A DNA stretch of 64,000 bases from Candidatus Latescibacterota bacterium (lineage in GTDB: Bacteria > Latescibacterota > UBA2968 > GCA-2709665): positions 896,001 to 960,000 of the forward strand of contig OZ252100.1 in the NCBI GenBank assembly GCA_965248435.1, read 5' to 3'. Shown in pieces: positions 28,916-64,000 of this stretch. The notes under the pieces were generated by a model. That model was not told the origin of the DNA. It was given only the letters and a program-made list of their open reading frames with translations, and did no database searches. The first letter of the stretch is position 1, and every line of letters starts with the position of its first letter. A program made the translations under genes and the position numbers.

Positions 28916-28961
28916 CGAGTTTCGGTGACTTATTGAGTAGGGTATTGACGAACGCGTTGCC

Positions 28962-30071: not shown

Positions 30072-30075
30072 TCAT

Positions 30076-31597: not shown

Positions 31598-31924
31598 CCC
31601 CTCTTCGCGAATGCCTTTCTATAGAGACACTTACTTAGTCTGAACTCAAGTACCTATTCTCCATCAGATCGTCACTTCGACCGCTCAGCTTGATGTCGCT
31701 GCATAGCCTCCTGCGACCTCTACATTCCTCTGTGCGAGCAACACCGCCGATTCTCGAAACTGAGATTCCACATCGCTAGGCAGCTCCAGCGCATGAAGAT
31801 TTCTCGCCACAACCCAATATTCCACGCGCGTGGAATATTGGTCTAAATGAAAAGGCCTCCGCTATTTTGACATAAGCCCTTGTTTATTATGCTGATGACC
31901 TTCTGACAGAGCCGTGCTCCGCAC

Positions 31925-47401: not shown

Positions 47402-47470
47402 GTTTTCAGGCCCGATTTGCGTCTATCTTTATACAGCGCCAGACCCAAGGATTCATGAGAGTGATCTCAG

Positions 47471-48376
47471 ATGAAATTAGATGAAATTCTCGTTCAACGT
47501 GCTGCTAAGGGCTGCAGCCAAAGTTTCGACACTCTGGTGAAGAAGTATCAGACTGGGATTCTTTCACTCTGCTACGAGACCGTGGGCTCCTTTGCTGAAG
47601 CACAAGATTTGACCCAAGAAACTTTTGTGCGGGCATTTGAGCGGATTGATCAACTTAGGGAATCGAAAAGATTTGTTTGGTGGCTAAGGCGAATTGCTCT
47701 CAATCTGTGCTACTCTGCTACACGAAGCCAAGTCAGAACTGAGTCAGTTGAGCTTTTTTCTCATGACAGTCCTCCGGTTTCACTCAGATCTCAGGCCCGC
47801 CAACTAGAAGCACTGGAGGACGTCGAGAAGCGCAGGACCGTGATTGATCTCTTAGACATTCTTTCCGATAAGACTCGTATCACAGCAAGACTGTTCTACA
47901 TAGACGGGCTTTCCTACCAAGAAATCAGTGATCTTCTCAACATCACGGTTACGACCGTGGAGAGTCGCCTTCACAAGGCCCGACAGAAACTCAAGATTGA
48001 ATTTAGGGACGGATATTCTGATTCAAAGCGAAGAGGTGTTCTCCAGAGACTCACTGATATTGCAGGAGGTGACAGGAAAATGGACGAAGTCCGAATCGAA
48101 ATAGGCTGTGATCTTATTGCACACGCGAAGGACGAAAGCCCGGAGGGATTCTTGGCTCAAATTCGAGAATTGCGCAATGATCTGGCAAAAGCTCACAGAC
48201 TGGGGCTTCCGCCGGTTCGGATAATTGACAAGACCGGGTTACGACAAAGAGCCTTTGACATCCTAATTCGAGAGGTTCGGTGCAAGTCAGGAGAACTGAG
48301 TACGGAAGATTCTCACATAAAGGTCATTGAAGAATTGAGGGAGTCGATTCTGGAACAGCGAAATCTGTTTGACTAA
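47471..48376 (+). CDS. ECF sigma factor fused to FlhA cytoplasmic (FHIPEP)-like domain
   Basis: Sigma2 AQDLTQETF..WLRRIALN; sigma4 LSYQEIS..TVESRLHKAR; C-terminus VRIEIGCDLI..IRELRNDLA..LGLPPVRIIDKTGL..FDILIREV..GEL. Confidence 0.85.
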   Translation: MKLDEILVQRAAKGCSQSFDTLVKKYQTGILSLCYETVGSFAEAQDLTQETFVRAFERIDQLRESKRFVWWLRRIALNLCYSATRSQVRTESVELFSHDSPPVSLRSQARQLEALEDVEKRRTVIDLLDILSDKTRITARLFYIDGLSYQEISDLLNITVTTVESRLHKARQKLKIEFRDGYSDSKRRGVLQRLTDIAGGDRKMDEVRIEIGCDLIAHAKDESPEGFLAQIRELRNDLAKAHRLGLPPVRIIDKTGLRQRAFDILIREVRCKSGELSTEDSHIKVIEELRESILEQRNLFD

Positions 48377-48382
48377 TTAGCT

Positions 48383-50218
48383 CTAGACTTGCTGTTTTGT
48401 TTGATCTATCAGCCCGTCTAGACGGTTCACCAACTCGGCAAGGACGGCATATGTCTTGTCTATGGGTTCGGGGGTGGAGATGTCTATCCCACACAGTTTG
48501 AAAAGGTCCATGGTGTAGAGAGAGGAACCAGCTTTGAGGAAGTTGAGGTAATTTTCCCTGGCATCGTCCGAGCCCGACAGAACCCCTTCGGCCAGGGCAT
48601 GGGCGGCGCTGATGCCGACAGCATACTGGAAGGTATAGTAAGGCATGTAAAGATGGGCGAACTGGGCCCAGGTGATTTGAGTGCGATCAGGATCGTCGAT
48701 CATGGTGGCTCCATAACCTTCGGAAAAGAGGTCCTTCATAAGGCCGTTCAAGATGTCGGCAGTGAGGGGTTTGTTCTGTTCGGCTCGACAGTAGACTTCC
48801 CACTCGAAGCGGGCAAGCGTGGGCATGATAAAGAAGTAGCGGTGAAAATTGTCCATGGCTTCGTCGATGAGTGCCATCTGAAATGTGGGATCGTCAGCCT
48901 TTTCTTCCATCAGGTAGGCCCGGGTGACGGCTTGATTGAAATTAGATGCTGTTTCAGTGACCATGGCAATGGGAAACCCTTTATAGACGTCGGGCTGCGT
49001 CTGGTCAGCGAGGTACGAGTGCATCGCATGTCCAAGTTCGTGGGCCAGAACGCTCATATCCATCAGGGTATCGTTGTAGGAAGTAAACGCAAACGCGTAA
49101 CCATCAATCGAACCCGGGGCAGCTGCGCCCTGGCGCTTACCCTCGTTGGGGGCGTAGTCAACCCACCGGTCTTCGAGGCAGCCACGAAGGAGAATGGAAA
49201 CGTATTCATCACCCAAAGGGGCCATGCCCTTGCTGATCCAGTCTATGGCCTCTTCGTAAGGGACTTCCGTCTGATCTTCAACAATCGGTGCCCAGATGTC
49301 GTAAGGGTGAAGCGTTTCCACTCCCAAGGCCCGGCGCTTGACCTCCCAGTATCGGTGCCAGGTTGATAGGTTGGCTTTGTAGGAGTCGATCAGATTGTGA
49401 AAGACTTCGACGGGGACATTGCCGGGGAAGAGGCGCGACTCAAGGACAGAGTTGTAACCACGTACCCGAATGTTGAATGCCTGTTGTTTTACGAAGGTGG
49501 CGTAGTTGTTCGCCAAAGTATTTTTGAAGCTTAGGTAACCGTCGCTGAAATTTTCCCAGGCTGTGCGCCGCTGTTCACGGTCGGGACTCTGGATACCGGT
49601 GGGCGGAATGGTAGTCTGTCCCACGTGGTACAATCTACCACTGCTATCGATGGCCTCGGCGAATTTCAGGTCGGTGTTGGTGAGTTCGACCGCGGTCTGT
49701 GAAACACCCGAAAAAGGGTCGGCCAGCAGCCCTAGGATTTCTTCGACTTCTGCAGAGCGAAGGTGGGCTTTCTGGCGGAGCAGGTTGTCGAAGAAGTGCT
49801 TGTAAATGGCCAGACGCGGCTCTCGTTTGCACCACTGCAAGAGCGAGTCACCTATCTCAAGCATTTCGGGTTCGGCAAAGGCGGAGTTGGCAACAAACCT
49901 GGAGAACACACCAATAGCCAAGCCTTGCTTAGCTTTTGCAGTGATATCGTTGCTGTCCACGGAAGAAGACATGCTCAAGTAGATCCCTACCCGATTTAGC
50001 CGCCTGACCAAGGCGAAATAGGCGTCGAACCAGTCTGCCAGGACAGTGGGGCCGTCGCCTAGTTTACCGGCAAAGTCCGACAATGCAGGCAGGGCCTCTT
50101 CGACGGCATCCAGCTCCGTCTGCCACGTGTTCCAGGACTCAAACAGCGCCTCGGCGTTCCAGGTGCTTTTTTCTGGGACGTCTTTGCGTTTGAGGACTTG
50201 ACCCGTTTCCGACATCAA
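48383..50218 (-). CDS. pepF: Oligoendopeptidase F (M3B)
   Basis: KRKDVPEKSTWN, NEGKRQGA, LAHELGHAMH, ETAS, YTFQYA, FLKAGSS. Confidence 0.92.
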   Translation of the reverse strand: MMSETGQVLKRKDVPEKSTWNAEALFESWNTWQTELDAVEEALPALSDFAGKLGDGPTVLADWFDAYFALVRRLNRVGIYLSMSSSVDSNDITAKAKQGLAIGVFSRFVANSAFAEPEMLEIGDSLLQWCKREPRLAIYKHFFDNLLRQKAHLRSAEVEEILGLLADPFSGVSQTAVELTNTDLKFAEAIDSSGRLYHVGQTTIPPTGIQSPDREQRRTAWENFSDGYLSFKNTLANNYATFVKQQAFNIRVRGYNSVLESRLFPGNVPVEVFHNLIDSYKANLSTWHRYWEVKRRALGVETLHPYDIWAPIVEDQTEVPYEEAIDWISKGMAPLGDEYVSILLRGCLEDRWVDYAPNEGKRQGAAAPGSIDGYAFAFTSYNDTLMDMSVLAHELGHAMHSYLADQTQPDVYKGFPIAMVTETASNFNQAVTRAYLMEEKADDPTFQMALIDEAMDNFHRYFFIMPTLARFEWEVYCRAEQNKPLTADILNGLMKDLFSEGYGATMIDDPDRTQITWAQFAHLYMPYYTFQYAVGISAAHALAEGVLSGSDDARENYLNFLKAGSSLYTMDLFKLCGIDISTPEPIDKTYAVLAELVNRLDGLIDQTKQQV

Positions 50219-50272
50219 AACTCCGGTTACTCTGTGCGCCGAGCCGGGGGTACCGTGTTAGCGGGCGTGCGT

Positions 50273-50749
50273 CTACGTTGACGACACTTCCGAGTCAGCT
50301 CGAATACGAGAACCAATCTCTTCCGCAATTTTCCCCAGTAACTCTTCAGAAACAGTCCTCCTGACTCCGGGAACTGCGTAATGGGCAGGATAGTCTGGAT
50401 CATCAAATTGGCATCCTGCAAATGTCCGGACTTTGCTGTAGCGGGGAATCAGATGGAAGTGAACATGCCGATCCTGATTTTGAAGAAAAGCGTAGTTGAA
50501 GTGATCTGGACTAAAGGCTTGAGTCAAAGCTCGAGAAGCTATGCGTATTTGCTGGTGCAAATCGACCCACTCATCCTCCAAAACCTCGCTGACGACTTCG
50601 GCGTGACGACGCAATACCAAGAAGCACTTACCCAGTAGGTTCTGATTCGTGTTGACAACAAGCATCCAACGCGAGCTTTGGGAGACTATGGGAGCCAATG
50701 CTGAATCACATAGTGCACATCCAGGTCTTGCATCAATGATATTTGACAC
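50273..50749 (-). CDS. HIT family protein
   Basis: CALC, FNYAFLQN, HVHFHLIPR; GTG start assumed. Confidence 0.88.
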   Translation of the reverse strand: MSNIIDARPGCALCDSALAPIVSQSSRWMLVVNTNQNLLGKCFLVLRRHAEVVSEVLEDEWVDLHQQIRIASRALTQAFSPDHFNYAFLQNQDRHVHFHLIPRYSKVRTFAGCQFDDPDYPAHYAVPGVRRTVSEELLGKIAEEIGSRIRADSEVSST

Positions 50750-50774
50750 TGTCGATTTCCTAAAACCGCAAGGC

Positions 50775-50860
50775 GCGTAACGTTCTCGCCGTGCGTGAAC
50801 TGCCGAAGGCAAGTTGGGCGAGTGCCCGAATGGGCCGAGCCGGGCAACTGCTACTAGTGG
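50775..50860 (-). mobile_element. Degenerate attC-like site (a truncated one also at 50226-50262)
   Basis: Ends GAACGTTACGC on minus; shares CCGGCTCGG and GCACGGC flank motifs with the other sites. Confidence 0.5.
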
Positions 50861-50969
50861 CCGTGCGGCTCCGATGGGGCTTGCCAGATCATTGGAACTT
50901 TTCTATAAAGCTACTGGCGCCAAAATGGGTCTCTATACGTAGAAGGCCTTCTTTTAGTAAGGATGGGAG

Positions 50970-52121
50970 ATGGAAGAGCTAGATGCATTAGTAGTCCGGG
51001 CTCAAGCAGGCGATCTGGCCGCTTTTGACACAATTGTTCTGCGATTCCAGGACATGGCAGTGGCCTATGCCTGCTCGCAACTGAATGATTTCCAATTAGC
51101 CCAAGATGTCGCTCAGGAAGCGTTTATTTGTGCCTTCCTAAATCTAGAAAAGGTGCGAGACCCTTCCGCATTTCCAGGATGGTTTCGCCGAGCGATCTTG
51201 ACTCAGTGTGACCGACTTACTCGGAGAAAGCAACTTTCAACTGAACAGCTAGATGAGACCGGTGATGTGGCCTCCGACCAAAAACGCCCCGACGAACTTC
51301 TGGATGAACGGAATCTAAAAGAAGAGGTGCTGACCGCGATCGAAGCGCTTCCAGAGTCTGAGCGTGCTGTTGTTTTGCTTTTCTACATCGCCGAGCACTC
51401 TCAGAAGGAAATTGCCTCTTTCCTGGAAATTGCCGTAACGAAAGTCAACAATCGGCTCCACACTTCCAGGAAGCGGCTGAGAAAGGAGTTGAGGAAGATG
51501 GAAAGCAAGAACTTACGACCTTCGCGAGACCAGGAATTTAGCGAAAAAGTGCGGAAGCACTTGAAGGGCCTAGAGAAACTTCACAGCAAGTTGGCGAGTT
51601 TGATGGGAGCGCTCATTTCGGTTGGACTGGGAACTAGCACGCAAGTAAAAGTCGCATCAGTGAATCAAGAAACATATGTCGATTTCATCGAATCTTTGCC
51701 TAATCCCAGTTGCGCTTTGACATTCAGGCTAGCACCGTCAGAAGGTAGAGTAACATTCAATATCCCAATGTCACTTGCTTGGGGGCTTCTGGACCATCTG
51801 AATCATCCAGAGGCGGCCCAAAGATTTCACAGAGAACAGAAAGTAGTCTGGGAAGAGATACAGCCTCTGGTTCCTTTTTTTAAACAAGCGGTGAAAAATC
51901 TTAGTCCCACCTGGGAAATGGAGCTCGATGTGGAAGCTTCAAAGATTGTAGTAGACACAAATCCTTTGTTGTTATTGGCCCAACCGGAGATCCGGAGTGC
52001 CGACCCGATCGAAACGGTAGTCCACCTAAGGCTTGACGTGAAGACGGAGGGAATCTCAGTCATGCTTAGCTTGTGTTATCCACCAGACATTCTGAGGTCT
52101 CTACTCCCATATCTCAACTAG
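50970..52121 (+). CDS. ECF sigma factor fused to FliM middle (CheC-like) domain
   Basis: AQDVAQEAF..AFPGWFRR; SQKEIA..VNNRLHTSRKRL; C-terminus LEKLH..VKVASVNQETYVDFIESLPNP..DTNP..LCYP. Confidence 0.88.
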   Translation: MEELDALVVRAQAGDLAAFDTIVLRFQDMAVAYACSQLNDFQLAQDVAQEAFICAFLNLEKVRDPSAFPGWFRRAILTQCDRLTRRKQLSTEQLDETGDVASDQKRPDELLDERNLKEEVLTAIEALPESERAVVLLFYIAEHSQKEIASFLEIAVTKVNNRLHTSRKRLRKELRKMESKNLRPSRDQEFSEKVRKHLKGLEKLHSKLASLMGALISVGLGTSTQVKVASVNQETYVDFIESLPNPSCALTFRLAPSEGRVTFNIPMSLAWGLLDHLNHPEAAQRFHREQKVVWEEIQPLVPFFKQAVKNLSPTWEMELDVEASKIVVDTNPLLLLAQPEIRSADPIETVVHLRLDVKTEGISVMLSLCYPPDILRSLLPYLN

Positions 52122-52151
52122 AGCGGCCAACTTCGTTTTTCGCACAATGCA

Positions 52152-53153
52152 TCATCTGGCGGTCCCACCAATCCTTAGAAGCAGCCTGTCCTCTGTCTGG
52201 TACGCCTCCTCATCTACCGTGATTTTCCAGATCTCGTTCGGTTCCGGCGGGTTCTCCACCTGCCAGAGGACGGTTTCCCTGAGTGCTTCTTTTACGGCCA
52301 CAACGTCACGGAGGCCCAGATCCCTTGAAGCGCGGGAAAGATCATACTGGCCCAGGGGTCCACTGTATATATCTCCCTCCCAAACATCGTCTGGTATCTC
52401 AACCACTTCCCATTCGTGACCCAAGATCTTAGATATCTCCTCGGCTATCTCGGGAAGCGTTTGGCATTCCATATCAGAGAGATTATAGGCCTTACCCACG
52501 GCCGCATCTGTTTCTAGAGCTGATACGACACTCGCTGCCAGATTCTTGTTGTAGCCCCGAGCAGCTGGTATTCGAAACGCCTTCCCTGGGAGGGCCAATC
52601 TGTCTCGGCCGTCCAAGACTCGCCTGATGATAGGCCACTCGCGGTATCCACCGGATCGGCCGGGACCATAGATGACCGGATAGCGGATCACGGTCGCAGG
52701 AAAGTCCCCTTCTTGACACGCTGCCAGCACCGCCCTCTCCATTAAAACCTTGTCGTAGTTCCGTGGCTCTTCCTCATAAGTCGGAGGATCTCTTAACGGC
52801 GCATCCTCCGAAATCGGTTCTTCTCCGAAGTCCGGGGCGTCTGCATACACATCGCCAGAACTGATGTGTACAGACGCCCTGATTCGGCCTCTGAAAGCCT
52901 CGATCACAGGCTTAGAGTCCGCATCGATCATGCTGAGCATGTCGATCACAGCATTTGCCTTGATCTTCTTCAGCGCCTCCCCGAACGCATCGCGATCTTT
53001 CCGATCACCATGAATGTGCTCACAATCCGGCATAAACGGGCTCTCGTGCTCCCCACGATGGTAGACCACTACCTCGTGGCCACGGTTCTGTAGTTCACGC
53101 GCAATAAAAGGACCACTGAGCCCGGTTCCACCAAGCAGAAGCACTCGCATCAA
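52152..53153 (-). CDS. NAD-dependent epimerase/dehydratase family protein
   Basis: GGTGLSG, HGDR, ISSGDVY, YPVIYGP. Confidence 0.88.
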   Translation of the reverse strand: MMRVLLLGGTGLSGPFIARELQNRGHEVVVYHRGEHESPFMPDCEHIHGDRKDRDAFGEALKKIKANAVIDMLSMIDADSKPVIEAFRGRIRASVHISSGDVYADAPDFGEEPISEDAPLRDPPTYEEEPRNYDKVLMERAVLAACQEGDFPATVIRYPVIYGPGRSGGYREWPIIRRVLDGRDRLALPGKAFRIPAARGYNKNLAASVVSALETDAAVGKAYNLSDMECQTLPEIAEEISKILGHEWEVVEIPDDVWEGDIYSGPLGQYDLSRASRDLGLRDVVAVKEALRETVLWQVENPPEPNEIWKITVDEEAYQTEDRLLLRIGGTAR

Positions 53154-53914
53154 TCACCCACACGAATTTGACGATCGTCGCCTACAGGATGCCGCATCCA
53201 AACATTTGGATCGGCATAGTATCCCTGATCCCGCTCGCGATCTATTTCTACTGGCTGCAACGCCCCTGACACAATGTAAGAACCACTTTCTGGAAACTGC
53301 AACCCGGTCCACGTCTCCCACTCGGCTATTGCGCCGATAACCACTACTCCTTTGGGAATCACCTTCAGCCTTTTAGCCCCCAGACGCCAGTGAACCCGAA
53401 CCCAGGGATCAAACGGCGAACCATCTTCCCGAGTCCAGCTTAGATATGTCTCGAAGGGTGTAAGCTGATAGGAGGGCTTCAAGGTAGGTCGCACAGGGGC
53501 GATGAGCGCGCTCAATCCGCGTTCGGCCGCCATGTCTGCCATCGCCTGCACCATCGTTCTGCTGTGCCCTTTTCGTCGGTGAGCGGGTGCTACCATCACT
53601 GCCAAGGCCGAGAGCGCTGTTGCGGTCTGATGGCGTTCCACCACCTCTTTCGCGCGGACAAAAATCGTGTGGAGGTCAGGGGGCAAATCTGCGAGCGACT
53701 CATCCCATACGAGGGGCAATGTGTGGCCGACCGCAATCACATCCTGCGAAGCGTCGCATAGAACCAGCTGAAACTCAGCAAATTGCTCGAAGAGGAGGTG
53801 CCAAAAGAGGATATTGGTGTGACGAAGGAATTCCGGCCACGCAGCAACGCTTAAGCGGTGGATCTGGTCCTCAAGGTCTGGCTTCTTTTCGAGAGTGATA
53901 AGTCTGTACGACAC
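53150..53914 (-). CDS. GNAT-like acetyltransferase
   Basis: VAPAHRRKGHS, APVRPTLK, FDPWVRVHWRLG. Confidence 0.8.
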   Translation of the reverse strand: MSYRLITLEKKPDLEDQIHRLSVAAWPEFLRHTNILFWHLLFEQFAEFQLVLCDASQDVIAVGHTLPLVWDESLADLPPDLHTIFVRAKEVVERHQTATALSALAVMVAPAHRRKGHSRTMVQAMADMAAERGLSALIAPVRPTLKPSYQLTPFETYLSWTREDGSPFDPWVRVHWRLGAKRLKVIPKGVVVIGAIAEWETWTGLQFPESGSYIVSGALQPVEIDRERDQGYYADPNVWMRHPVGDDRQIRVGD

Positions 53915-53951
53915 AGGTTGATCCTATTTGCGCTTTGCATTCAGAATCAGC

Positions 53952-54735
53952 TCACATTGCTGAGGCTGCGACGGTTAGCCACACGGGTAAACCGGCACGA
54001 GGATTCGCTTTCCAGTCTACCGAGGTTTCATCTGCTCCAAAGTCATATTGGCTTCCCTGCCAGAACCGGGAATCTGCACGACTTTCAACTATCCTCGTTA
54101 TCGTTAAGCCTGCTTCCCAGAGCGGATTCAGCAAGTCTGACAGAGTCCAATGAAATTCGTAGGATTCCTCTTCAGACACTCGAAATGGTCCGGTCTCCCA
54201 GTAAGACTTCTCCATTTCAATAGGCGATACTTGATCTTTCCACGGGCGCATGAATGGATGGATGTCGTAGAAGACATAGGACCCTCCCGGCTTCAGTATT
54301 CTCGATACTTCGCGGAATACTCCGGCAACATCAGCGATCCACACGAAAAAGCCATTCGTGGAGCAAACAAGATCAAAGGTCGAGTCGCCTGCGAACTCTA
54401 GAGATGCAGCATCGGCACGAACAAAATCGATCGACAAGCCGAGCTTCTCCGCCCTACGCGCAGACAGTTTCAATCGCTCCTCGGAGATGTCTGTCGAAGT
54501 CACCTCTGCCCCCAGCCCTGCGAAAGCGTACGCCGCAAGGTTATCCCCACTGCCAATGATGCACACCTGCTTGATCTCCAGCCATCTCTCGAATTGTCTC
54601 TAGAGCCCCGCCCTCAAATGCCAATTCCGGTTCCTTGTGACACCTTCGCCACCGATCGCTGCGATTTAGTCGGTCTTCCCATGTTGTTGCCTGCTCGTCC
54701 CAGATTCGACGGTTGGCTTCGTGCATTTTGTTCAT
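53952..54735 (-). pseudogene. Class I SAM methyltransferase with frameshift near 54570
   Basis: MNKMHEANRRIWD.. frame joins VCIIGSGDN..DIS..ILKPGG frame. Confidence 0.75.
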
Positions 54736-54761
54736 ATCTGATCGGTTGTGCTGAACTGTTC

Positions 54762-55613
54762 TTAACGGAGAGATGCTATCAGCTGACTCGCTCTTTTGTG
54801 TACACCGTCGGGAGCACCATAAAACACCGATACTGTCTTGCCCTCGCGGTCAAACACAAAAATTGTCGGAACCACAACAAAGTCTCCAAAGGCGGCCAAG
54901 ACCTCTTCTGTGCCAATCGCGATGGGAACTGAATTGTCCAAGGAAGCTGCAAATTCTCTGACGTCCTTTTCTTCAGAATCCACTGCCAAGGCCAGAACCC
55001 CTACATCATCACCATACTCACGCGCAAGGTTACCAAGCCACTTCATTGATCTACGGCATGGCGGACACCATGTCGCCCAGAGTTCGACCACCGCAATCTT
55101 TCCCGACAGATCGCCCGATCTGATAGACTCACCTTTCAGATTGTGGATGACGAATTTCGGCATCTCGTCGATCTCGCTATCTTCTTCCACGCTTTCAGGC
55201 TGCCCAAGAACATCCTCACCGCGGAGCGTAAGATCGATCATTTGCTTGAGGTCCCTTCGATACAGATCATAGCTCCCCGGGATCTTCCAGGAATACTTTC
55301 CCTCTTTCTTCCAGCTGAAATCCTTACGCCGTGCGAGAAGGGCCTCATTCACAAAGACAGCCGGGTACTTCATCACACCGTAGCGTGTAGCAAGTTCAGA
55401 TTCTCCAAAATTCTCGCTGGAAAACACGACCTGCCCACCATATTCACGCACCACTTCCTTAGTCAGCAAACTTGCTGGATCGGAAACGCCTCACGTATCG
55501 GGCCAGCGCACCAGAGTTACAGTAATTGGAGACATTCCCTGGCCTGCGGAGCTCAATGATTGTGGTATGAATCCGCAAGCCACTAACAGAAAGATCCCGC
55601 TCAGCCGTTTCAT
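54762..55613 (-). CDS. Predicted selenoprotein: exported Sec-thioredoxin-like domain + TlpA domain
   Basis: AGAGGAGG then ATG 55613; signal/lipobox LVAC; in-frame TGA at 55493-55491 (VRWPDT-U-GVS); downstream hairpin; KYPAVFVN; WATWCPPC. Confidence 0.8.
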
Positions 55614-55661
55614 CTTTCAACCTCCTCTACAAAGGTGAAATAGCGGGGCAAAATATCTTCA

Positions 55662-56716
55662 GCTGGATTCAATGACTAAGTGCAACACTTGGACTTGAAG
55701 ACTTCAGCTGGTGTTTTGAAGTTAAGACATTTTCTTGGTCGGTTGTTGATCCGGTTCTGAATTTTCTTTAACTCGTGTTTGCTGACCTTTGAGAAGTCTG
55801 TCTTCTTGGGGAGGTATCTGCGGACCAGACCGATAGCGTTTTCCACAGCGCCTCGCTCCCAGCTGTGGAACGGTTTGCAGAAATAGGATTTGGTGCCAAG
55901 CACCTCGTTGACCCGTTGATGTTGGCCGTTTTCGGATCCGTTGTCATATGTGATGCTCTTCCTCATGTGGGGAGGATGTCGCCCAAGGCGTCGATTAATC
56001 GCTTCGGCGACCTCCGAGGGTCCGTTCTTTGCCAGCTTAGCCAGGTGTAGGTATCTCGACGATCGCTCAAGACAAGCGCCAACGGCCTGTTTGCTCTCAC
56101 GAGAGATGATGGTGTCGGATTCCCAGTGGCCAGGTTGTTTCCGTTTTTCGATGTAACGGGGACGTCGATCGATCGAAATACGGCCTGGAATGTGGCTTTC
56201 CCGGTGTTTTCGGGTATGCCACCGCGGCTTTCGTTTTTTGTGAGCTCGGGATAAGCAAGCAACCAGATCCCGCTGCTTGTGCACCTTTGGATCGTAGATA
56301 TACTGGTAGATGGCTTCGTGGCTGATACCCGCGCTCGGACGCTCCTCGGGAAGCCTCCCAGCGATCAACTCGGGAGACCATCCTTGCTTGAGTTTGGTCT
56401 CGACATATCGCCGGATAACCGGATTCTTCAGCCGTTTCCGCTTGCCGGCCTCCCGCTTACGTTTCTCAGCCCTTCTGTGAGCCTGGAGGCCCGAGTAACT
56501 CTCAGCTATCGGGGACGGATTACGTTTCAACTCTCTTGAAATCGTGCTGGCGCTCCGGTCAAGGGCCTTGGCAATATCTCTAAGGCTTGCACCAGTGGCT
56601 CGACAAAGCGCAATCTGCTCGCGTTCGTCTATCGTAAGATGCTTGTAATTGTTTCCCATACACTTAGGATAGGACAGTTGCTACCCTAAGTGTTGCACTT
56701 CCTTATTGAACTCGGG
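55662..56716 (-). mobile_element. Complete IS30-family element (transposase 55676..56659)
   Basis: STISRELKRN, WSPE, GHWESDT, TYDNGSE, WERGAVEN; imperfect IRs with TTCAAT-N4-AAGTGCAACAC; TCA target duplication. Confidence 0.93.
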
Positions 56717-57741
56717 TCAATGATTACCGCCGCCAGTTTGAGGTCCTTATCGTTCTGATCGCCGAGGCCTGACCTGTCGAGCGCTGCCTTCCCTATTTGA
56801 AGATACAGCTGACCGATACTCTGATCGATCTCGCTTGAAGATAAACGCGCCTTGGCCAACTCATACGCTTCAAGCAGGGGGGCAACTGCAGAAGTGTCAG
56901 GTGATGCGCGAACCAACTCCCCGAATCGGAGGTGTGCTTCTAAATACTTGTAGAATGCGCCGTAAAGCAGTCCTTTCTGATCTAACTCGCGTGCAGTCTT
57001 CAACGTAGAATTTACCACATTGTAGGGCACGTGTCCTTCCGGGTCTTTATCCTCAAGCTCTCGATTTCGATCGATTAGCGCGCCCTCCAGTATGGCCAGC
57101 TCAGGTTCCATAGACCGAAGCGTAAGCGAAGCAGATCCGTCGTCGAACTCAAGACCCTGACAATAGATAGCAAAGTCGAGGTCCGGCTCGGACATGCCTA
57201 TGTAGTAAAGGCCTGGGGAAATTCTGAATCTCATACCATAAAATCCCCCACCTGTATAGTGCCTGTCGCTCAAGAAACGGGAGACCTGTGCCAACGCCTT
57301 TACGGCCGAAGGGAGACTCACCTCTGAAACATCCACGAGCAGCTTCTGCTTCGCCTTCAACCTTTCGCCAAGCTTCTCCCACTCGCGTTGAAAGGCGGCA
57401 ACTCCTTGATTCTCCGAATCCCGTTCAGGATCATAGATCGTCTTTCGGTGGTCAAGATGCGTCGGAGTCATCACGTTGACCCATCCACGTCTCAGCTCTT
57501 GCAAGCTCAAATAGAGATGGCCAGACGCTAACGCCGTTTCCACATCGGTCAATCGCGCCAAACCCTTCTCCTTCGTCTTGCGCCACCAATTCTCACCTGA
57601 TTTGTCAAGATCCGTCTGCTGCCTGAGCTGGTCTATCTGGACAGCGATCTGATCCCCCACGCGCGGCTTCTGACAGGAGCCCGCTAGGACCAGGAGCAGG
57701 GAACATCCAATAGCACGCAATCTCAATTGATATCGTCTCAT
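56686..57741 (-). CDS. Hypothetical lipoprotein; last ~16 codons cut off by IS30
   Basis: Lipobox LAGSC; removing the IS restores ..AVIIEDILPRYFTFVEEVER*. Confidence 0.75.
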   Translation of the reverse strand: MRRYQLRLRAIGCSLLLVLAGSCQKPRVGDQIAVQIDQLRQQTDLDKSGENWWRKTKEKGLARLTDVETALASGHLYLSLQELRRGWVNVMTPTHLDHRKTIYDPERDSENQGVAAFQREWEKLGERLKAKQKLLVDVSEVSLPSAVKALAQVSRFLSDRHYTGGGFYGMRFRISPGLYYIGMSEPDLDFAIYCQGLEFDDGSASLTLRSMEPELAILEGALIDRNRELEDKDPEGHVPYNVVNSTLKTARELDQKGLLYGAFYKYLEAHLRFGELVRASPDTSAVAPLLEAYELAKARLSSSEIDQSIGQLYLQIGKAALDRSGLGDQNDKDLKLAAVIIDPSSIRKCNT

Positions 57742-57742
57742 C

Positions 57743-58483
57743 TCACTCCTGGCTCCGAAGTTTCTCGATCTGTTTCGCGACGAATTTCGCTCGAGGCATG
57801 ATCTCTAGGGCCTTTTCAAAGCTTTGAAGTGCACTCTCCCGATCTCCCCCCCTCTCGAGGAGGAATCCAAGGTTCAGATGGGTCCCGAAAGATTCAGGAA
57901 AGTGCTCCAGATTCACCTTTAAGAGCGCTTCCGCCAATCCGGCCTCACCCAATTCCTCAAAGTGATGAGAGATAGGCCAGAGAGCCTTCTCGCCGAAGTC
58001 GTAACCGGCGCGTCCGTAGTATTTTTTTCGAAGCTGCCGGTACCTTGTCAACGTAGAGTCTTCTCCTCCTGCTGCCATCGTTTCTTCCAAAACCTGCATC
58101 AGGGTCTGGGGTCGCGTGTGTCCGCGGTGACAGGTCTCGCAGGTGACATCGAGCAAATCGGTGCGCCCTGTCTTCGTTAACAGTTCAGTGTTGATCGCCA
58201 GGGTCATTCGCATCATCGCCCGAGCGACCTTCTTGGTCTCCTTCTCGTCCAAAGCATAAGCCATCTTTCTTGGGTTGCTGGGGTCTTTGACGTGGCAGTG
58301 TGAGCAGTTCACGCCGAGCCCCTGAGTGAATGCATTCATCACCTTATGGATTATCTTGAGGTCTGTACCGGCTGGAATAACTTCAAGGTTGGTTGCCACG
58401 TAGTCTTCTGATGCGTTGACAGGCACCCACACTAAGGCAACGAGAACTCCGATGTTAACAAAACGAGCCAAGTTGCTCATCAT
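57743..58483 (-). CDS. Di-heme c-type cytochrome (reaction-centre cytochrome c-like) + TPR
   Basis: Signal peptide; LGVNCSHCH; ARAMMRM; TCETCHRG; C-terminal TPR. Confidence 0.85.
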   Translation of the reverse strand: MMSNLARFVNIGVLVALVWVPVNASEDYVATNLEVIPAGTDLKIIHKVMNAFTQGLGVNCSHCHVKDPSNPRKMAYALDEKETKKVARAMMRMTLAINTELLTKTGRTDLLDVTCETCHRGHTRPQTLMQVLEETMAAGGEDSTLTRYRQLRKKYYGRAGYDFGEKALWPISHHFEELGEAGLAEALLKVNLEHFPESFGTHLNLGFLLERGGDRESALQSFEKALEIMPRAKFVAKQIEKLRSQE

Positions 58484-58513
58484 ATTCCTCCTTACCAGTA
58501 ATATGCCTCGTCT

Positions 58514-59056
58514 TTACTTGACGAGTGAGCTAAACAACCGAAGCTCGTTCCTTTGGGCCTCTGACAACCGCAATTCTTTGTTCGCCTGGTCAGGGTATAT
58601 CTCTGCTTGATCCCACTGTTCATTAATAATGCTGGTGGCAATCCCGATCTTGACTCCTCTATTTCGAAGCTCTGCCACGAGTTCTTGTGCATTTAAAAGA
58701 AACACCCAATCAATGTGCCAGGGTCGAGCTTCTCCGCGCGAAGTCATCGATTCTGCCTTCGGACCCGTGAATACCAGATAGTAGTCGGGCAAGGCATCTT
58801 CTCGTATATCGAGCAGACCTTCTCGCTTTGCGTAAAACTTGATATTTACTGTCTTTCCATTGAGGGAACCTTCTTCGAACACACCATCGATGCCCTTGAC
58901 TGTGGCAGACTCCTCAAGTCGAATGTTAAAGACTTTCGAAGCTACATACTCTCCGACATGACCGATCTGAGCAGGCCTACCGATGATTCGGGTGGTTTCT
59001 CGAGCGACCTGATTGCGCTGCCTAATGAGATCTGCAAGCTCCTCGATATCGCTCAC
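58514..59056 (-). CDS. Hypothetical protein, possible PD-(D/E)XK fold
   Basis: GHVGEYVA..GIDG..VNIK pattern. Confidence 0.6.
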   Translation of the reverse strand: MSDIEELADLIRQRNQVARETTRIIGRPAQIGHVGEYVASKVFNIRLEESATVKGIDGVFEEGSLNGKTVNIKFYAKREGLLDIREDALPDYYLVFTGPKAESMTSRGEARPWHIDWVFLLNAQELVAELRNRGVKIGIATSIINEQWDQAEIYPDQANKELRLSEAQRNELRLFSSLVK

Positions 59057-59318
59057 TCAACCTCTCTCCTTGAACGTTCCTCTCCTCTGTAGAGCTGATG
59101 GGGGCCTCGATTCAACTTGCTGAGGGCCAAATCTCAAATCCGCTCAGATTTCGTCATTCTGAGACCTCTACCCGTCACTAGAATCAAAAAGACCTTGAGC
59201 CAGAGGTCATAAAACGCGGAAATTTCGTCGTTCTCGACGCAATCTATATCTGAACAGGGGCACCCTGGAGATCTCACGGGAGAGAACGAGAATCTGTCGC
59301 TAAGCATTGATGGCCTGA

Positions 59319-59942
59319 TTAAGGAACGAACCCAAACGTGTTCTCGACCACTCCTGGAGTCAAGCTGTAGATAGAACAACCAATGGCTTCTTCAAAATCC
59401 TTCTGGATTTGAAAAATCGCCTTCCATTTCGTGATCATTTGATCAGACCCCCAATTACCATCAGACCGAATCGCTCCATCCACCATTCTTTTCTCAAGCA
59501 GACAGAAGCCCGTTGGCAATGCAAGATCGTCACATAGTTGTAGCAACCTGTCATAGTCGTTATACTCAATCTCATCCAAGAAATCTCGCACCACCTTGCA
59601 GTCGGCCTCCGTGCAATCCCATTTCGCGAAGTCAAGCCTCACCTCCTTGCATGGAAACGAGTGAGTCAGACAGACGCGAGCGGCGTCCGCAAAGCCTTCG
59701 CCAGTCAAGAATTTGTAACCCTCCACAATGTGACGCATCCCCACCCGACCCACGCGCCGCCCTATGTCGTGCAGAATCCCCAGAATGTGAGCAGTTTCTG
59801 AATTAAGGTCTTCGTGTTTGGCTGCGATGGCTCTGGCAGCTTTGGCTACAACCATAGAGTGGTCCACCCACTTTCCGGGATTGAGCCTTTCTGCTTCTCT
59901 GAGGTAATTCTGTGCTTGATCCAGAGTTGGCACGCGAGTCAT
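59319..59942 (-). CDS. HD domain phosphohydrolase
   Basis: WVDHS, LHDIGRR, CLTHSF, LCDDLA; ATG 14 nt after the attC R' box. Confidence 0.88.
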   Translation of the reverse strand: MTRVPTLDQAQNYLREAERLNPGKWVDHSMVVAKAARAIAAKHEDLNSETAHILGILHDIGRRVGRVGMRHIVEGYKFLTGEGFADAARVCLTHSFPCKEVRLDFAKWDCTEADCKVVRDFLDEIEYNDYDRLLQLCDDLALPTGFCLLEKRMVDGAIRSDGNWGSDQMITKWKAIFQIQKDFEEAIGCSIYSLTPGVVENTFGFVP

Positions 59943-59955
59943 TAGCACTCCGATG

Positions 59956-60038
59956 AAATAACGTTCCAGGCACTTGCGCGAACCCCGGAGGGGTTGGTCG
60001 AGGCCGGACGGCCTGAGCCGCAAGTGCTATGTTATAAG
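59956..60038 (-). mobile_element. attC-like site
   Basis: Minus strand: CTTATAAC..GCACTTGCG..CGCAAGTGC..GAACGTTATTT. Confidence 0.75.
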
Positions 60039-60157
60039 CCGTGCCGGTTATCAATCATTACTCCTGCAAGTAACAGAAATATCTTCATAAAGAAAGATTT
60101 TCTTGGCATAATGGTGCTTTAGTTATAGAAGGCCTTCTGAGCTGCTAAGGATGTGAG

Positions 60158-61315
60158 ATGGAAGAGCTGAAAGCACTGGTCAAACTGGCGCAAGCTGGTG
60201 ATCTGAAGGCGTATGACAAGATTGTCGATCGCTTCCAGGACATGGCTATGGGATATGCCTACTCACTACTGGGAGACTTTCATCTGGCTGAGGATGCATC
60301 TCAAGACGCCTTTGTTGAAGCGTATCTGTACCTGGCTAAGTTACAAGATCCTTCAGCCTTTCCGGGTTGGTTTCGACGCATTGTGTTCACACGCTGTAAC
60401 CGGATAACTCGTAAGAAGCGGATTGCCATGGTGGATCTGGAAGTCGCTAGCGAGACTTTGTCAGATGAAAAGGGACCTGAGCAGCTTCTGGAAGAGCAAG
60501 TACTGAAAGACCAGGTCCTACAGATTATCCGCGCTTTGCCAGAGGCTCAACGTACTGTTGTGATGCTCTTCTACATCTCCGAACTCTCTCAAAAAGAGAT
60601 TTCTGCTTTTCTGGAGATACCCATAACTACGGTCAACAACCGGCTCAACGTCTCCAGGAAACGACTGAAAGAGGAGATACTGAATATGGCAACCGAAGAC
60701 TTACAAGCACAGAATCCCTCCAGGGATCGAATATTCGCGGAAAAGGTACAGAATCACCTGCAAGTCATTAGGAGCATTCACAATGAATATGCTTCGCGCC
60801 TAACAGATCTTTTCTCTCGTTCGCTAGGTAGAAAAGTGGATCTTACAGCATTAGCCGTGGAGCAGTCCACCTACGATGCGTTCATCCAATCACTGCCAAA
60901 GCCATGTTGCGCATACACCTTCTCGTTCAACATACCGACTCAGAAGGATGGCGGATGGGTCATCCTTGATTTGTCGAGACCCTTTGGTTGCGCGCTTGCA
61001 GGCAGAACTACCGAATCGGGGAATACACCTACGGAATTAAGCATTAATGAACGCAATAGGCTTGGCCCGATTATCACCAATTTGGTGGCCAACTTTGGCA
61101 TAATTTGGAAATTTCCACCCGGTGTCCTATCAGACGCCTATATACATGAGGACCCAGAAGAACTACCGTCGTATCCTCACGCAGATCGGGAAGAACCTAT
61201 AATCCAGGCAAAACTGATGATCGAGGCCGATGGGCTTTCGGGTATTGCCGGACTATGTTATCCAGCCAACACAATTGAAAAGGTGATTTTGCCCTATCTT
61301 GATCAAAGAGTATAG
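60158..61315 (+). CDS. ECF sigma factor fused to FliM middle domain (paralog of 50970)
   Basis: Same sigma core; IRSIHNEYASRL..VEQSTYDAFIQSLPKP..ELSINE..LCYPANTIE. Confidence 0.88.
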   Translation: MEELKALVKLAQAGDLKAYDKIVDRFQDMAMGYAYSLLGDFHLAEDASQDAFVEAYLYLAKLQDPSAFPGWFRRIVFTRCNRITRKKRIAMVDLEVASETLSDEKGPEQLLEEQVLKDQVLQIIRALPEAQRTVVMLFYISELSQKEISAFLEIPITTVNNRLNVSRKRLKEEILNMATEDLQAQNPSRDRIFAEKVQNHLQVIRSIHNEYASRLTDLFSRSLGRKVDLTALAVEQSTYDAFIQSLPKPCCAYTFSFNIPTQKDGGWVILDLSRPFGCALAGRTTESGNTPTELSINERNRLGPIITNLVANFGIIWKFPPGVLSDAYIHEDPEELPSYPHADREEPIIQAKLMIEADGLSGIAGLCYPANTIEKVILPYLDQRV

Positions 61316-61342
61316 ATTCCATAATCGTCTAAAACCGGCTGG

Positions 61343-61426
61343 CTTATAACGTGTTCCCCGAACCTGGCGAAGCCAGGTTGTAGCGAAGGCGCGTATGCGC
61401 CGAAGCCGGGTGTACTCGTGTTAAGC
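61343..61426 (-). mobile_element. attC-like site
   Basis: Minus strand: GCTTAAC..CCCGGCTTCGG..internal hairpins..GTTATAAG; immediately follows the GFA gene stop. Confidence 0.7.
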
Positions 61427-61438
61427 GCTGGTGCAGCC

Positions 61439-61921
61439 CTACTGCGGAGCTTTAGGTAGCTTTCTCAGTTCAATTCTGAGGCGCTCCAGGCTGTCCTGAG
61501 GCCATGCCTTGTTTCTGTCGTATCCTTCTTCAAACTGGGGGACATGAGCCGGCAGCTCAAGCCAGGCGTGCTTTTCTTTGGTCCAAATGTGTGCATTTAT
61601 CTCAAGAACCCTCATGTCGTCCAACGTTCGCGATCTCAATAGAGCAGTGGCCGGGTGATTAGTAGCAGTCCTGTAGATAACATCCTCGCAGGATTCGCAG
61701 AGGAACGTCGTTCGATGCGCCGCAATACGCTCCGAGACAAGTTTGCCCTGATCGAATCTAAGATCGCTTTCAAGAACGATGGTCGTAATCCCGAAGGCGG
61801 AACCGGAAGCCTTCTGACAGTCTAGGCAATGACATGCGTGCACAAAAAGAGGCGGGTTCCCAAGTCTGTATCGCACCTCTCCGCAGCTACAGCCACCGGA
61901 GAACTGGCAGTTCTTAGTCAT
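61439..61921 (-). CDS. GFA/CENP-V family protein
   Basis: GGCSCGEVRY, CHCLDCQ, FLCESC. Confidence 0.9.
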   Translation of the reverse strand: MTKNCQFSGGCSCGEVRYRLGNPPLFVHACHCLDCQKASGSAFGITTIVLESDLRFDQGKLVSERIAAHRTTFLCESCEDVIYRTATNHPATALLRSRTLDDMRVLEINAHIWTKEKHAWLELPAHVPQFEEGYDRNKAWPQDSLERLRIELRKLPKAPQ

Positions 61922-62034
61922 ACGCTCCTCCAGGTCAAGCCTGTCCCGCCATCAATCCGCTCTACGCGCGGGTTTGCCCGAATCCCCCCCTCACATCCTT
62001 CGATTAGCCGTGCGTTGTCAAGTTGAGCGATATG

Positions 62035-62927
62035 TTATACCGACCACTCGATGCCATCGAATGCTGCCCGCTGCGCATCGAAGAAGTGCCACCACTTGTC
62101 TAGCCACGGTTCATCAATCCCGCTACCCTTCGCGCAATCCACAATGACAGCTCTTATATTTCTCAGTTGAGTTGAGATCGCGTTCTCTTTCTCAGGTCCC
62201 ATCAACGATTCCGGGTCTGATTGAACGAGGTCAAGGATTCGGTCGACGCCCTCGAGCACCCGTGACCCGGTCGGCGAGAGCGCAGCAGCGACGTAAAGCC
62301 ACTTTGAGTATGGGAAGACTCTTCCATCTATCACAAGAGCGCAACGAATCGAATAGTTGATGGTCTCGAGTACACTGCTGAGAGCTGACAGCCGGTCGTT
62401 TCGATCCATGGGGTTATCTGCGTTACGATGAAAGCCTCTCATCTCAACATAGTTGAACAGCAGTGCTGCCCGTCGTAATTTCTCGTGCATTGGCAGACAA
62501 GCTCGGCTTTGGATTGCATCAAATCGACCGCTCGGATCGAGAACAGCCACTGCGTGTTGGAGTTCGTAGATGCTCTCAAGCTCTGGTGTGGCAAACGCAT
62601 TGTGGATGTCCGCAAACGACGTGACGTTGAGGTGACCGGGCTTGCCGTTGATGATCACGCCTACAAACCTGGATGGTGAAAGCGAATCGAATCGAGTTGC
62701 ACTTTCGTCATCCATCAGTAGGTAGAAGTCGAGGTCCGATGAAGGATCATCAACGTTGCGGGTGGTCGATCCATGAAGCACTACACATCATCACCAAAAG
62801 CTGAAAGGACGGGCGGTCGCTCTTTCGAGGCGAAGAATTTGCGCGACTGGGCCACCCACTTGGATCGGTTCTCGCCGGTGCCGTTTTCGCGATACGAATT
62901 GATTAGCTTCCCGAATGTATTGTCCAT
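62035..62927 (-). pseudogene. Nucleotidyltransferase-domain protein with frameshift near 62785
   Basis: ATG 62927 frame (MDNTFGK..DDV) shifts into LHGSTTR..SDLDF; PYSKWL. Confidence 0.65.
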
Positions 62928-63049
62928 GATGTGCGATTACGCCACGAAGCTGTGGTCGGTATAACTAGTGTTTGAACGGCGAATATGCAGCACATCTCGC
63001 GATATTCTGGAGATATACTGCAAGGTTCTGATTTCACTTTTCCCATTTC

Positions 63050-63185
63050 ATCTAACGTTCCGCAGGTTGCCGAAGCGGCTGTACATCAACAATATAGTAA
63101 AATGCCTCCCGGTAGGGGAGGCTGGTGACCTACAGCCGCTTTGGCGAAGGTCGTACGACCTGAGCCGGCAACCTGCTGTTATAAG
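63050..63185 (-). mobile_element. attC-like site (best conserved)
   Basis: Minus strand: CTTATAAC-A-GCAGGTTGCCG..CGGCAACCTGC-GGAAC-GTTAGAT; inner stem AAGCGGCTGTA/TACAGCCGCTT. Confidence 0.8.
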
Positions 63186-63276
63186 CCGTGCCGCCGTAAA
63201 TTAGTAAAACAAAGAGAAGCCGCCCAGAGGGGGCTTTCCCTGTGCGGTATTACCGTCTATGACTGGTTGTCCGTCG

Positions 63277-63999
63277 TCAGTCAACCAAAGAAGGCCGAAT
63301 GGTGCCAGCCCTCTGTAGATCGTGGATAGTCTTCAAAATCGTCGTGCGCGATGTATCAATCTCAGCCTCTGATGGTGACCTCTCTTCAATCATGTGTTGC
63401 ATGATTCCTTGAACACGCTTTGAAATGTTCCGCATGATCTTGTCTTCAACCCGGCGTGCGGCGTTGTCTTTCCTCACCAGGGCAATCGCGAGATCCTCGG
63501 TAAAGGTCTTCCTGAGCGTGGCCACCATCTCCTCATCTGTCAGCTTTGACCAGTCCGCGAAGGATTCTACATCCACTCTATCTGATTTCTCATCCATAGC
63601 GATCAACTCCTGTCTTAGTCTCTGCCGGCCACGGTGCAGGCGGACTTTCACGGCGTTTTTCGAGATAGCGAGTGATTCACTCACAGAATCCACACGCATC
63701 CCAAGAAGGTAGTAGAGGACGACAGCCTCCCTTTCTCCTTCCGGCAGGCAGTCCAGCACATCAAGAATCTGGCGCCTGCGCTCCTCCCGTTCGTATACCT
63801 CATCTGGAGAAAGGTCTAGTGCCGGCGTCCCGTCAGGGTCAATGCCATTCTCCTCGACCTTGGGCCGTCGCAGTTGCATTTTGCAGAGATTAATGGCTAT
63901 TGAACAGACCCAGTTCCTAAACTGGTCAGCGTCCCTGAGGCTCGGCAGGTCGGTAAAGGCCGCAATGAACGCCTCCTGTGCGACATCATCGGCCAGGCC
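63277..63999 (-). CDS. ECF sigma factor fused to FliG C-terminal-like domain (5' end outside window)
   Basis: Open frame to the edge: LADDVAQEAF..QFRNWVCSIAINLC; LPEGEREAV..VKVRLHRGR; C-terminus FADWSKLTDEEM..DLAIAL..KIMRNISKR..ILKTIHDLQRAGTI. Confidence 0.85.
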   Translation of the reverse strand, partial: GLADDVAQEAFIAAFTDLPSLRDADQFRNWVCSIAINLCKMQLRRPKVEENGIDPDGTPALDLSPDEVYEREERRRQILDVLDCLPEGEREAVVLYYLLGMRVDSVSESLAISKNAVKVRLHRGRQRLRQELIAMDEKSDRVDVESFADWSKLTDEEMVATLRKTFTEDLAIALVRKDNAARRVEDKIMRNISKRVQGIMQHMIEERSPSEAEIDTSRTTILKTIHDLQRAGTIRPSLVD

Positions 64000-64000
64000 A

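Follow-up and report, generated by a model that had tools for sequence, protein, structure and literature searches.

Why should a sigma factor end in a piece of the flagellar motor? The question is raised by four genes in a stretch of 64,000 nucleotides, hereafter the window, from a Candidatus Latescibacterota bacterium (positions 896,001 to 960,000 of contig OZ252100.1, assembly GCA_965248435.1; G000:C1:896001-960000 in our numbering, G000 being the host genome of 5.67 Mb with a mean GC of 0.566). An initial annotation had described them as extracytoplasmic function (ECF) sigma factors fused to domains of FlhA, FliM and FliG, and had proposed that their products dock on the basal body, sense its assembly or bind each other. 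Coupling of flagellar assembly to transcription is known through sigma28 and the secreted FlgM. Using family profiles, structure prediction and a comparison set of 168 genomes of the same phylum, we find that the four genes are real and intact and that their extensions are cleanly excised single cytoplasmic domains of flagellar proteins; the organisms with these fusions are known from assemblies alone.

ECF Cores with C-Terminal Extensions

P0001 (47471-48376 of the window, plus strand) encodes 301 residues, with sigma2 at 47534-47737 and sigma4 at 47840-47992, and is recognized by Pfam as well as by the NCBIfam profile TIGR02937. On the same strand follow P0002 (50970-52121, 383 residues; sigma2 at 51036-51227, sigma4 at 51321-51479) and its paralogue P0003 (60158-61315, 385 residues; sigma2 at 60224-60421, sigma4 at 60509-60667). 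The fourth open reading frame (ORF), P0004 (63277-63999), lies on the minus strand and runs off the end of the window; its whole-genome form, P0008, has 281 residues and spans the window-equivalent positions 63277-64122, with the first 41 codons outside the window and sigma4 at 63616-63777. All four proteins exceed the Pfam cut-offs for Sigma70_r2 and Sigma70_r4_2, and none has a Pfam match to sigma region 1 or 3, while TIGR02937 (sigma70-ECF, cut-off 42.9 bits) gave 97.1, 74.7, 75.0 and 84.4 bits for P0001, P0002, P0003 and P0004, respectively. All four are ECF (group 4) sigma-70 proteins with C-terminal extensions, as the initial annotation had it, and the best Foldseek matches to the core of the P0001 model are SigW, AlgU and SigE.

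The host genome has 19 Sigma70_r4_2 matches over the cut-off. Five of its sigma genes include a flagellar domain, and four of these sit in one stretch of 16.7 kb. The fifth, P0009 (C1:5324457-5325200), is a truncated copy of the FliG_C fusion, an ORF of 200 residues that is 91-93% identical to the ECF-FliG_C gene and is devoid of the sigma2 part. As judged by eye, three other sigma genes of the host carry ankyrin-like repeats and one has another long extension.

Single Flagellar Domains in the Extensions

The extensions comprise approximately 100-200 residues after sigma4 and all pass the curated Pfam cut-offs for their families (29.1 bits for FHIPEP, 27 for FliM and 23.3 for FliG_C). That of P0001 scores 35.5 bits with FHIPEP across residues 196-282 (48056-48316), equivalent to positions 322-408 of the 657 in the hidden Markov model (HMM). 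When aligned with free mini-FlhA proteins and host FlhA (alignment A3), it is collinear, from the junction Met204 to its last residues (48080-48373), with the whole of the ~97-residue free proteins found in 12 other genomes of the phylum, whose start methionine it shares, and also with residues ~345-500 of host FlhA minus a stretch of 47 FlhA residues. We take this layout to be subdomain 1 (SD1) of the cytoplasmic part of FlhA (FlhA-C) with the inserted SD2 taken out. An AlphaFold2 model built on A3 has a mean predicted local distance difference test (pLDDT) of 82, with values of 85-91 across most of the extension, which Foldseek superposes on FlhA-C (3a5i_A) with a root-mean-square deviation of 2.1 over 77 columns and matches also to 3mix, 6ai0 and 6ch2. 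The original assignment to FlhA is therefore upheld by Pfam and Foldseek, with the correction that the fused part is the first cytoplasmic subdomain and not the whole of FlhA-C. P0001 is without the membrane domain and the later cytoplasmic subdomains of FlhA, and is not a full FlhA (FHIPEP) protein, which combines a membrane domain with a cytoplasmic domain of four subdomains.

The extensions of P0002 and P0003 derive from the middle domain of FliM (FliM_M). In P0002 the Pfam match scores 57.6 bits over residues 194-380 (51549-52109; HMM 10-190 of 192), and in P0003, whose extension spans 60716-61312, it scores 31.3 bits over residues 197-252 only (HMM 10-65 of 192); the two proteins align across residues 1-382 with 44% identity. 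The FliM extensions begin where the middle domain of host FliM starts and stop at the LCYP...L motif before the FliN-like domain. They lack the N-terminal peptide with which host FliM_a binds CheY, and Pfam found no FliN-like domain (PF01052) in either P0002 or P0003, a domain that the host paralogue FliM_b has; neither protein is a full FliM, each having the middle domain alone. A deeper profile of 25 ECF-FliM members (A6) retrieves the FliM middle-domain structures 5x0z_E, 4fq0_B and 4gc8_A at E ~9e-22, and 4fhr_A and 2hp7_A at E ~1e-16 (the FliM_M matches ranging from 9e-22 to 6e-16). An identity as phosphatases of the CheC/CheX/FliY kind was rejected, given that A6 matches CheC (4hyn) much more weakly, at E 0.0076 only, and Pfam found no CheC family in these extensions. 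A structure model of P0002 built on the 5-row alignment A1 had a mean pLDDT of 45.7 and was set aside, and a search of the ESM Atlas with the P0002 extension gave no usable match.

P0004 matches FliG_C at 40.4 bits (residues 145-234, window 63298-63567; HMM 19-106 of 108). The FliG_C profile of P0008 (A5) matches the C-terminal domain of FliG, 1qc7_A, at E 2.2e-10 (positions 4-89 of 101), and also 1lkv, 3ajc and 4fhr_B. The FliG-C identity proposed at first is thus confirmed and narrowed to the ~100-residue C-terminal domain of 1qc7, the gene itself being on the minus strand. Pfam found FliG_C in P0008, with FliG_N and FliG_M missing, and the protein is not a full FliG, which has N, middle and C domains. 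By Pfam, profile and fold (5x0z, 4fq0 and 2hp7; 1qc7 and 1lkv; 3a5i and 3mix), the extensions are homologous to domains of FliM, FliG and FlhA, respectively, from which they differ in holding one domain of each only.

Integrity of the Genes and Intact Relatives

Fusions of this kind could in principle be products of mis-assembly, frameshift or gene decay, and the assembly has an estimated contamination of 7%, the truncated copy P0009 exists and one ECF-FliM gene of the phylum genome G161 contains an in-frame TAG. We regard this explanation as hardly credible. Separate short-read Logan contigs (four runs, none of them listed as RNA, from one sample and one study, which may be the assembly's own source) cover 47000-52322 and the stretch from 56689 or 58801 to 61417 with 0 differences, so that P0001, P0002 and P0003 lie whole inside them, and no indel or joint is listed in 47000-64000. 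The initial annotation had allowed for stop codons between sigma core and extension, and there are none, either in the genes or in the independently assembled contigs. The P0008 region shows variant Logan contigs, which are expected from the truncated, 91% identical second copy P0009. Domain boundaries are precise, and intact orthologues with 34-87% identity exist in other assemblies.

Among these, the ECF-FliM relatives P0005 (86%), P0006 (59%) and P0007 (55%) each combine sigma and FliM domains. A HMMER search with A1 against 1.84 billion representatives returned 130,149 matches at E <= 0.001, mostly sigma cores, and about 20 full-profile ECF-FliM clusters are found in the best 150 of those matches; sigma and FliM families occur together in 21 of the 25 proteins scanned. 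The ECF-FliG_C architecture recurs in P0010, which is 86% identical and shares a 50.6-kb contig with P0005, and in full-length matches of G077 (281 residues, 47%), G004, G083 and G079. A second ECF-SD1 protein is encoded in G161 (309 residues, 34% identity over the whole length), and the copy in G095 is truncated. The architectures initially seen in one genome are therefore shared by others, with ~20 clusters of ECF-FliM, six ECF-FliG_C proteins and a second ECF-SD1. G161 also encodes one more ECF-FliM of 425 residues, and a region of it (G161:C8:69677-72203) contains three frames whose lengths are unusual (579, 721 and 828 residues), one with FliG_C and two with FliM.

A Wider Clade of Extension-Bearing ECF Proteins

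The genes belong to a large ECF clade with swappable C-terminal modules, a context that goes beyond the initial annotation. Scanning the genomes of 185,579 species with two core motifs yielded 80 loci, which show the core family and not FliM fusions, because the search patterns came from the sigma core. By their record titles these loci span many phyla (among them Latescibacterota, Poribacteria, Planctomycetota, Acidobacteriota, Chloroflexota, Armatimonadota and Cyanobacteria), and all 80 encode long proteins, of 316-858 residues where complete. Six proteins cut by contig ends were left out of the extension scan, and the 74 complete ones all have sigma domains followed by varied extensions: ankyrin repeats in 47, the PheRS-alpha core (tRNA-synt_2d) in five, T2SSF in three and a GNAT family in three, with SAICAR synthetase, inositol-1-phosphate synthase, a BFN domain, APH and a nucleotidyltransferase in one each. 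FliG_C, FliG_N and FliG_M are each found in one member of the 74, and per-locus scans place FliG_C in L042 and both FliG_N and FliG_M in L087. The fusions to the PheRS-alpha core, SAICAR synthetase (246.7 bits), inositol-1-phosphate synthase, T2SS-F, a BFN domain and a Rho-like domain include L038, L095, L069, L030, L051 and L122. By eye, the extension of L122 is Rho-like and RNA-binding, those of L117 and L118 are TPR-like, and L110 has four FliG_C repeats, two of them supported by the tools.

In a tree of 49 sigma cores (three rows were dropped as partial or non-ECF and one as a duplicate), all extension-bearing ECF proteins form one clade with support 99/96, and the eight short ECF proteins of the host lie outside it. 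The three core types of the fusions fall in three subclades of this large clade, whose members almost always bear a C-terminal extension. The ECF-SD1 pair (98/77) lies inside a 100/99 clade with two proteins bearing other extensions; the six FliG_C fusions form one clade (99/98); and the five FliM fusions group together (99/96) inside the 100/99 'FQDMA' family, which also includes the L087 fusion to FliG_N and FliG_M and a G081 fusion in which FliG_C is followed by cytoplasmic parts of MotA. This placement implies no fewer than four or five separate captures of motor parts. The extensions exceed 50 residues and are conserved within their phylogenetic groups, as is the structural rule for extension-type ECF proteins.

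Control of ECF factors by a C-terminal extension is of a known kind, being described in the main texts of PMC7826278 and PMC8999054 for ECF41 (SnoaL-like), ECF42 (TPR) and ECF238 (Cys-rich), with ECF proteins of the same extension type clustering together in the first of these accounts (PMC7826278). The present proteins resemble those groups in their sigma2 and sigma4 core, in a fused domain of more than 50 residues with no anti-sigma gene nearby and in the way that extension type tracks core phylogeny. They differ from them in that FlhA SD1, FliM_M and FliG_C with or without MotA cytoplasmic parts are extensions found in neither main text (PMC7826278, PMC8999054), and one core clade here swaps many unrelated extensions, unlike what is stated in PMC7826278. 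Pfam found no SnoaL or TPR family in the four proteins at E up to 1. The literature searched yielded no description of an ECF factor with a FliG, FliM, FlhA or ankyrin extension, in line with the original remark that no described ECF group with C-ring or export-gate domains was known, even if Text S2 or Table S2 of PMC7826278 could list such proteins. These types of extension and the highly modular clade appear to be new.

Free Flagellar Domains and Flagellar Genes of the Host

Elsewhere the host genome encodes a full FlhA, two full FliM and three FliG (two in tandem), together with MotA, which lies ~6 kb from flhA and was found with PF01618 (a scan of G000 for MotA_N, PF20560, gave no match). 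A FliA-like ORF of 268 residues stands by flhA (C1:3523535-3524341), its name given by position and sequence alone. An operon-like row at L010 (G000:C1:2717826-2721335) consists of a short ECF gene, an anti-sigma-like ORF with a zinc-finger motif CxxC...HxxxCxxC (by eye), FliM, FliN and a FliG-like ORF. The FliM of this row is a second FliM, without the CheY-binding peptide, and the row would amount to another set of switch proteins, controlled by an ECF/anti-sigma pair.

Each flagellar module of the fusions also occurs in the phylum as a free mini-protein, distinguished from the fusions by the lack of a sigma core, and we found no name or description of such mini-proteins in the literature. 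The host has a FliM_M-only protein of 186 residues (69.5 bits), as well as a protein of 571 residues (L004:934-2649, plus strand; G000:C1:31623-33338) in which FliG_M and FliG_C are followed by an apparent membrane segment. The C-terminal part of the latter looks FecR-like by eye, which Pfam did not confirm, and its layout resembles that of an anti-sigma factor. A soluble protein of 232 residues (L005:1093-1791, minus strand; G000:C1:2513186-2513884) has FliG_C at its start, and its C-terminal half consists of two stretches equivalent to the cytoplasmic residues 81-129 (53%, E 2.5e-14) and 212-241 (57%, E 8e-8) of host MotA. Left out is the MotA stretch between 129 and 212, which we take to be two membrane helices. 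The same MotA-derived end is present after FliG_C in the G081 sigma fusion (E 1e-10) and, more weakly, in the sigma fusions of G004 and G083 (E 0.002-0.003 to MotA and 1e-10 to the 232-residue protein). This cassette of FliG_C and MotA cytoplasmic parts is widespread among proteins of the phylum, preceded by N-terminal regions of various kinds. In the motor, rotor and stator touch through FliG_C on one side and the cytoplasmic domain of MotA on the other.

A Proposed Flagellar Partner as Input to Sigma Activity

What could such extensions do? We assign a probability of approximately 50% to the reading that they are regulatory and that a flagellar partner would provide the input to sigma activity. 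The extension would then replace a separate anti-sigma factor, as in ECF41 and ECF42, and would control the access of sigma2 and sigma4 to RNA polymerase. The signal would arise when the extension binds its ancestral partner, at the flagellar motor or close to it: the cytoplasmic domain of a MotA-type protein in the case of FliG_C, subunits of the FlhA ring in that of SD1, and the C-ring or a free FliM/FliG-like protein in that of FliM_M. Expression of the regulon would then track motor assembly or occupancy, with either sequestration or activation of the sigma factor being conceivable. Transcription would thereby be coupled to the flagellar state as in the checkpoint of sigma28 (FliA) and FlgM, a likeness of analogy only. 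FliA is a group 3 sigma factor controlled by a secreted anti-sigma factor, whereas the four proteins are ECF factors with the motor part built in, and the host has its own FliA-like gene.

The distribution of the fusions is consistent with a flagellar input. The initial annotation had noted that docking on the motor would fail if genomes with these fusions lacked flagella, which is not so: flagellar genes are present in all eight fusion-bearing genomes (G000, G004, G077, G079, G081, G083, G095 and G161), with FlhA full or split in all of them except G161. This distant genome (92% complete), with no FlhA in its assembly, carries both ECF-SD1 and ECF-FliM and has 15 FliG_C and 6 FliM matches, some of normal size. 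FHIPEP was matched in 65 of the 168 phylum genomes, G161 and G113 holding a fragment only, which leaves ~63 with a real FlhA; within the family of the host, FlhA is found in G000, G004 and G008 only. Conversely, G001, a genome of the same genus (97% complete, one contig), gave 0 matches to FHIPEP, FliG_C and FliM, and none of P0001, P0002 and P0008 has a full-length match in it.

Several observations weigh against a flagellar input. The fusion genomes are kin, so that these counts overstate independence, and their co-occurrence with flagella could partly mirror where donor genes exist. A promoter-like motif, GTAACC-N15-GGGAC, that precedes 21 of 62 family members in other genomes has no match in G000, and neither an ECF-type promoter nor a regulon emerged for this genome. 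The remaining points favour a different explanation, in which the domain is an exapted scaffold, serving as an in-cis regulatory or anti-sigma-like module or binding an unrelated ligand, with a flagellar origin that is historical only. The extensions are only 25-30% identical to the host's own FliM, FliG and FlhA by BLASTP, which makes them old paralogues and not recent duplicates. Where host FliM_a has the loop FGGTGG and FliM_b has FGGT, P0002 reads HLNHPEAAQRF; the GGXG motif is present in 0 of the 25 ECF-FliM family members, and the loop at its site is hypervariable in both length and sequence among them. Likewise, the host FliG helix KEEME has become QHMIE in P0008, with loss of its acidic residues. 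The mini-FlhA genes (~97 residues, SD1 only; L130-L141, from 12 genomes in a single family of the phylum) sit in a conserved neighbourhood, where they are syntenic with three genes unrelated to flagella, and the surrounding 4 kb are free of sigma genes. Moreover, the same ECF clade bears many extensions foreign to flagella, among them ankyrin, PheRS-alpha, SAICAR synthetase, inositol-1-P synthase, GNAT, APH and T2SS-F, and a generic regulatory scaffold could explain the architecture. Against such a scaffold stand the capture of three different motor or gate components on at least four to five independent occasions, the presence of flagellar genes in every fusion genome together with the absence of the domains from the non-flagellated G001, and the fusion of FliG_C with MotA cytoplasmic parts. 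On balance, we find the scaffold explanation possible and yet somewhat unlikely.

The loss of motifs bears also on the earlier proposal that the sigma factors bind one another through contacts of the FliM-FliG type, and on a similar pairing with free mini-proteins, in which one protein would act as the anti-sigma factor of the other. The GGXG motif of FliM is central to its contact with FliG_M, and its absence weakens this proposal, as does the finding that P0008 holds the 1qc7-type C-terminal domain only, presumably not the main FliM-binding part of FliG. We consider pairing improbable, even if the genes cluster within 17 kb, P0005 and P0010 share one contig in a relative and the host genome has free FliM_M, FliG_C with MotA cytoplasmic parts and a membrane protein that combines FliG_M with FliG_C.

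A flagellar input could take a more specific form, in which the proteins are motor-reporting sigma factors: the docking site would be the cytoplasmic face of MotA stator units for FliG_C, the ring of FlhA for SD1 and either the C-ring or free paralogues for FliM_M, and the whole clade would consist of partner mimics. We advance this form tentatively and hold it to be rather doubtful. A complex prediction for P0008 FliG_C with the MotA cytoplasmic parts of the 232-residue host protein gave a score of 0.00 and a mark of 0.32, which counts neither way.

Genomic Neighbourhood and Upstream Elements

P0001, P0002 and P0003 are each a lone plus-strand gene flanked by minus-strand genes, whereas P0008 is on the same (minus) strand as its downstream neighbours, its upstream side being outside the window. 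The neighbours encode a major facilitator superfamily (MFS) transporter, a sulfotransferase, methyltransferases, an M3 peptidase, an epimerase, a GNAT protein, a redoxin, an IS30-type transposase, a cytochrome c protein, an HD protein, a GFA protein and DUF6998 and DUF4037 proteins. Pfam found no anti-sigma or flagellar family among the 17 neighbouring ORFs, three of which match no family (47056-47364, 50273-50812 and 56686-57741; one of these shows, by eye, a histidine-triad-like motif), so that the original statement that neither an anti-sigma gene nor a flagellar operon is adjacent holds.

The neighbourhood is relevant to a further possibility, that the extensions are integrated decoys, baits that report phage or toxin attack on cellular machines and thereby switch on a defence or stress regulon. 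Extensions in the clade are indeed often pieces of essential machines (PheRS-alpha, Rho-like by eye, T2SS-F, FliG, FliM and FlhA), but the family scan of the neighbour ORFs found no defence genes adjoining the four genes and nothing links them to phages, and we judge this possibility very improbable.

A palindrome of 12 bp, AGAAGGCCTTCT, lies at 50941-50952, 18 nt before the start codon of P0002, and a second copy at 60127-60138 precedes P0003, the distance to the start codon being about 20 nt in both genes; related versions precede P0008 and one ankyrin-ECF gene, and the palindrome may be an operator. The shared 10-mer core, GAAGGCCTTC, was rejected as a marker of the regulon: it has 54 copies in the genome, mostly inside coding sequence, and hence is not specific by itself. 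The promoter-like motif introduced above takes the form GGTAACCTTTT-N11-TGGG(A/T)CTTA, with fixed spacing and 55-87 nt before the start in the upstream regions of L039-L102, and its pattern suggests autoregulation of family members.

An IS30-type element occupies 55660-56717 of the window, its transposase ORF (55676-56659, minus strand) matching HTH_38 and rve. Contig depth rises from ~40 in the flanking sequence to ~1200-1400 in the element, and loose ends are numerous at its borders, which indicates that it is multi-copy in the sample. The GC content of the window departs from the genome mean of 0.566 at 22001-24000 (0.707) and at 28001-32000 (0.47-0.49).

Implications for Flagellar Control and Sigma Factor Evolution

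A sigma factor with a built-in rotor, stator-facing or export-gate domain would directly link the flagellar machine to RNA polymerase. If they do report on the motor, the fusion proteins would tell RNA polymerase of stator engagement, export-gate assembly or rotor state, and they would form another checkpoint that does not depend on FlgM and might serve as a sensor of load or surface. The fusions may also be read as Rosetta stones, since the cassette of FliG_C with MotA cytoplasmic parts, and the sigma factors fused to both, name partners that can be tested.

By extension, the whole ECF clade would consist of sigma factors with integrated partner mimics that sense the condition of cellular machines and pathways, with PheRS, T2SS-F, purine synthesis and a Rho-like RNA binder as examples. 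One ECF clade that is distributed over many phyla and swaps ankyrin repeats, enzymes and machine parts may matter more than the flagellar fusions themselves; it carries the notion of the sigma factor as a one-component sensor far past the types of extension found in the main texts of PMC7826278 and PMC8999054.

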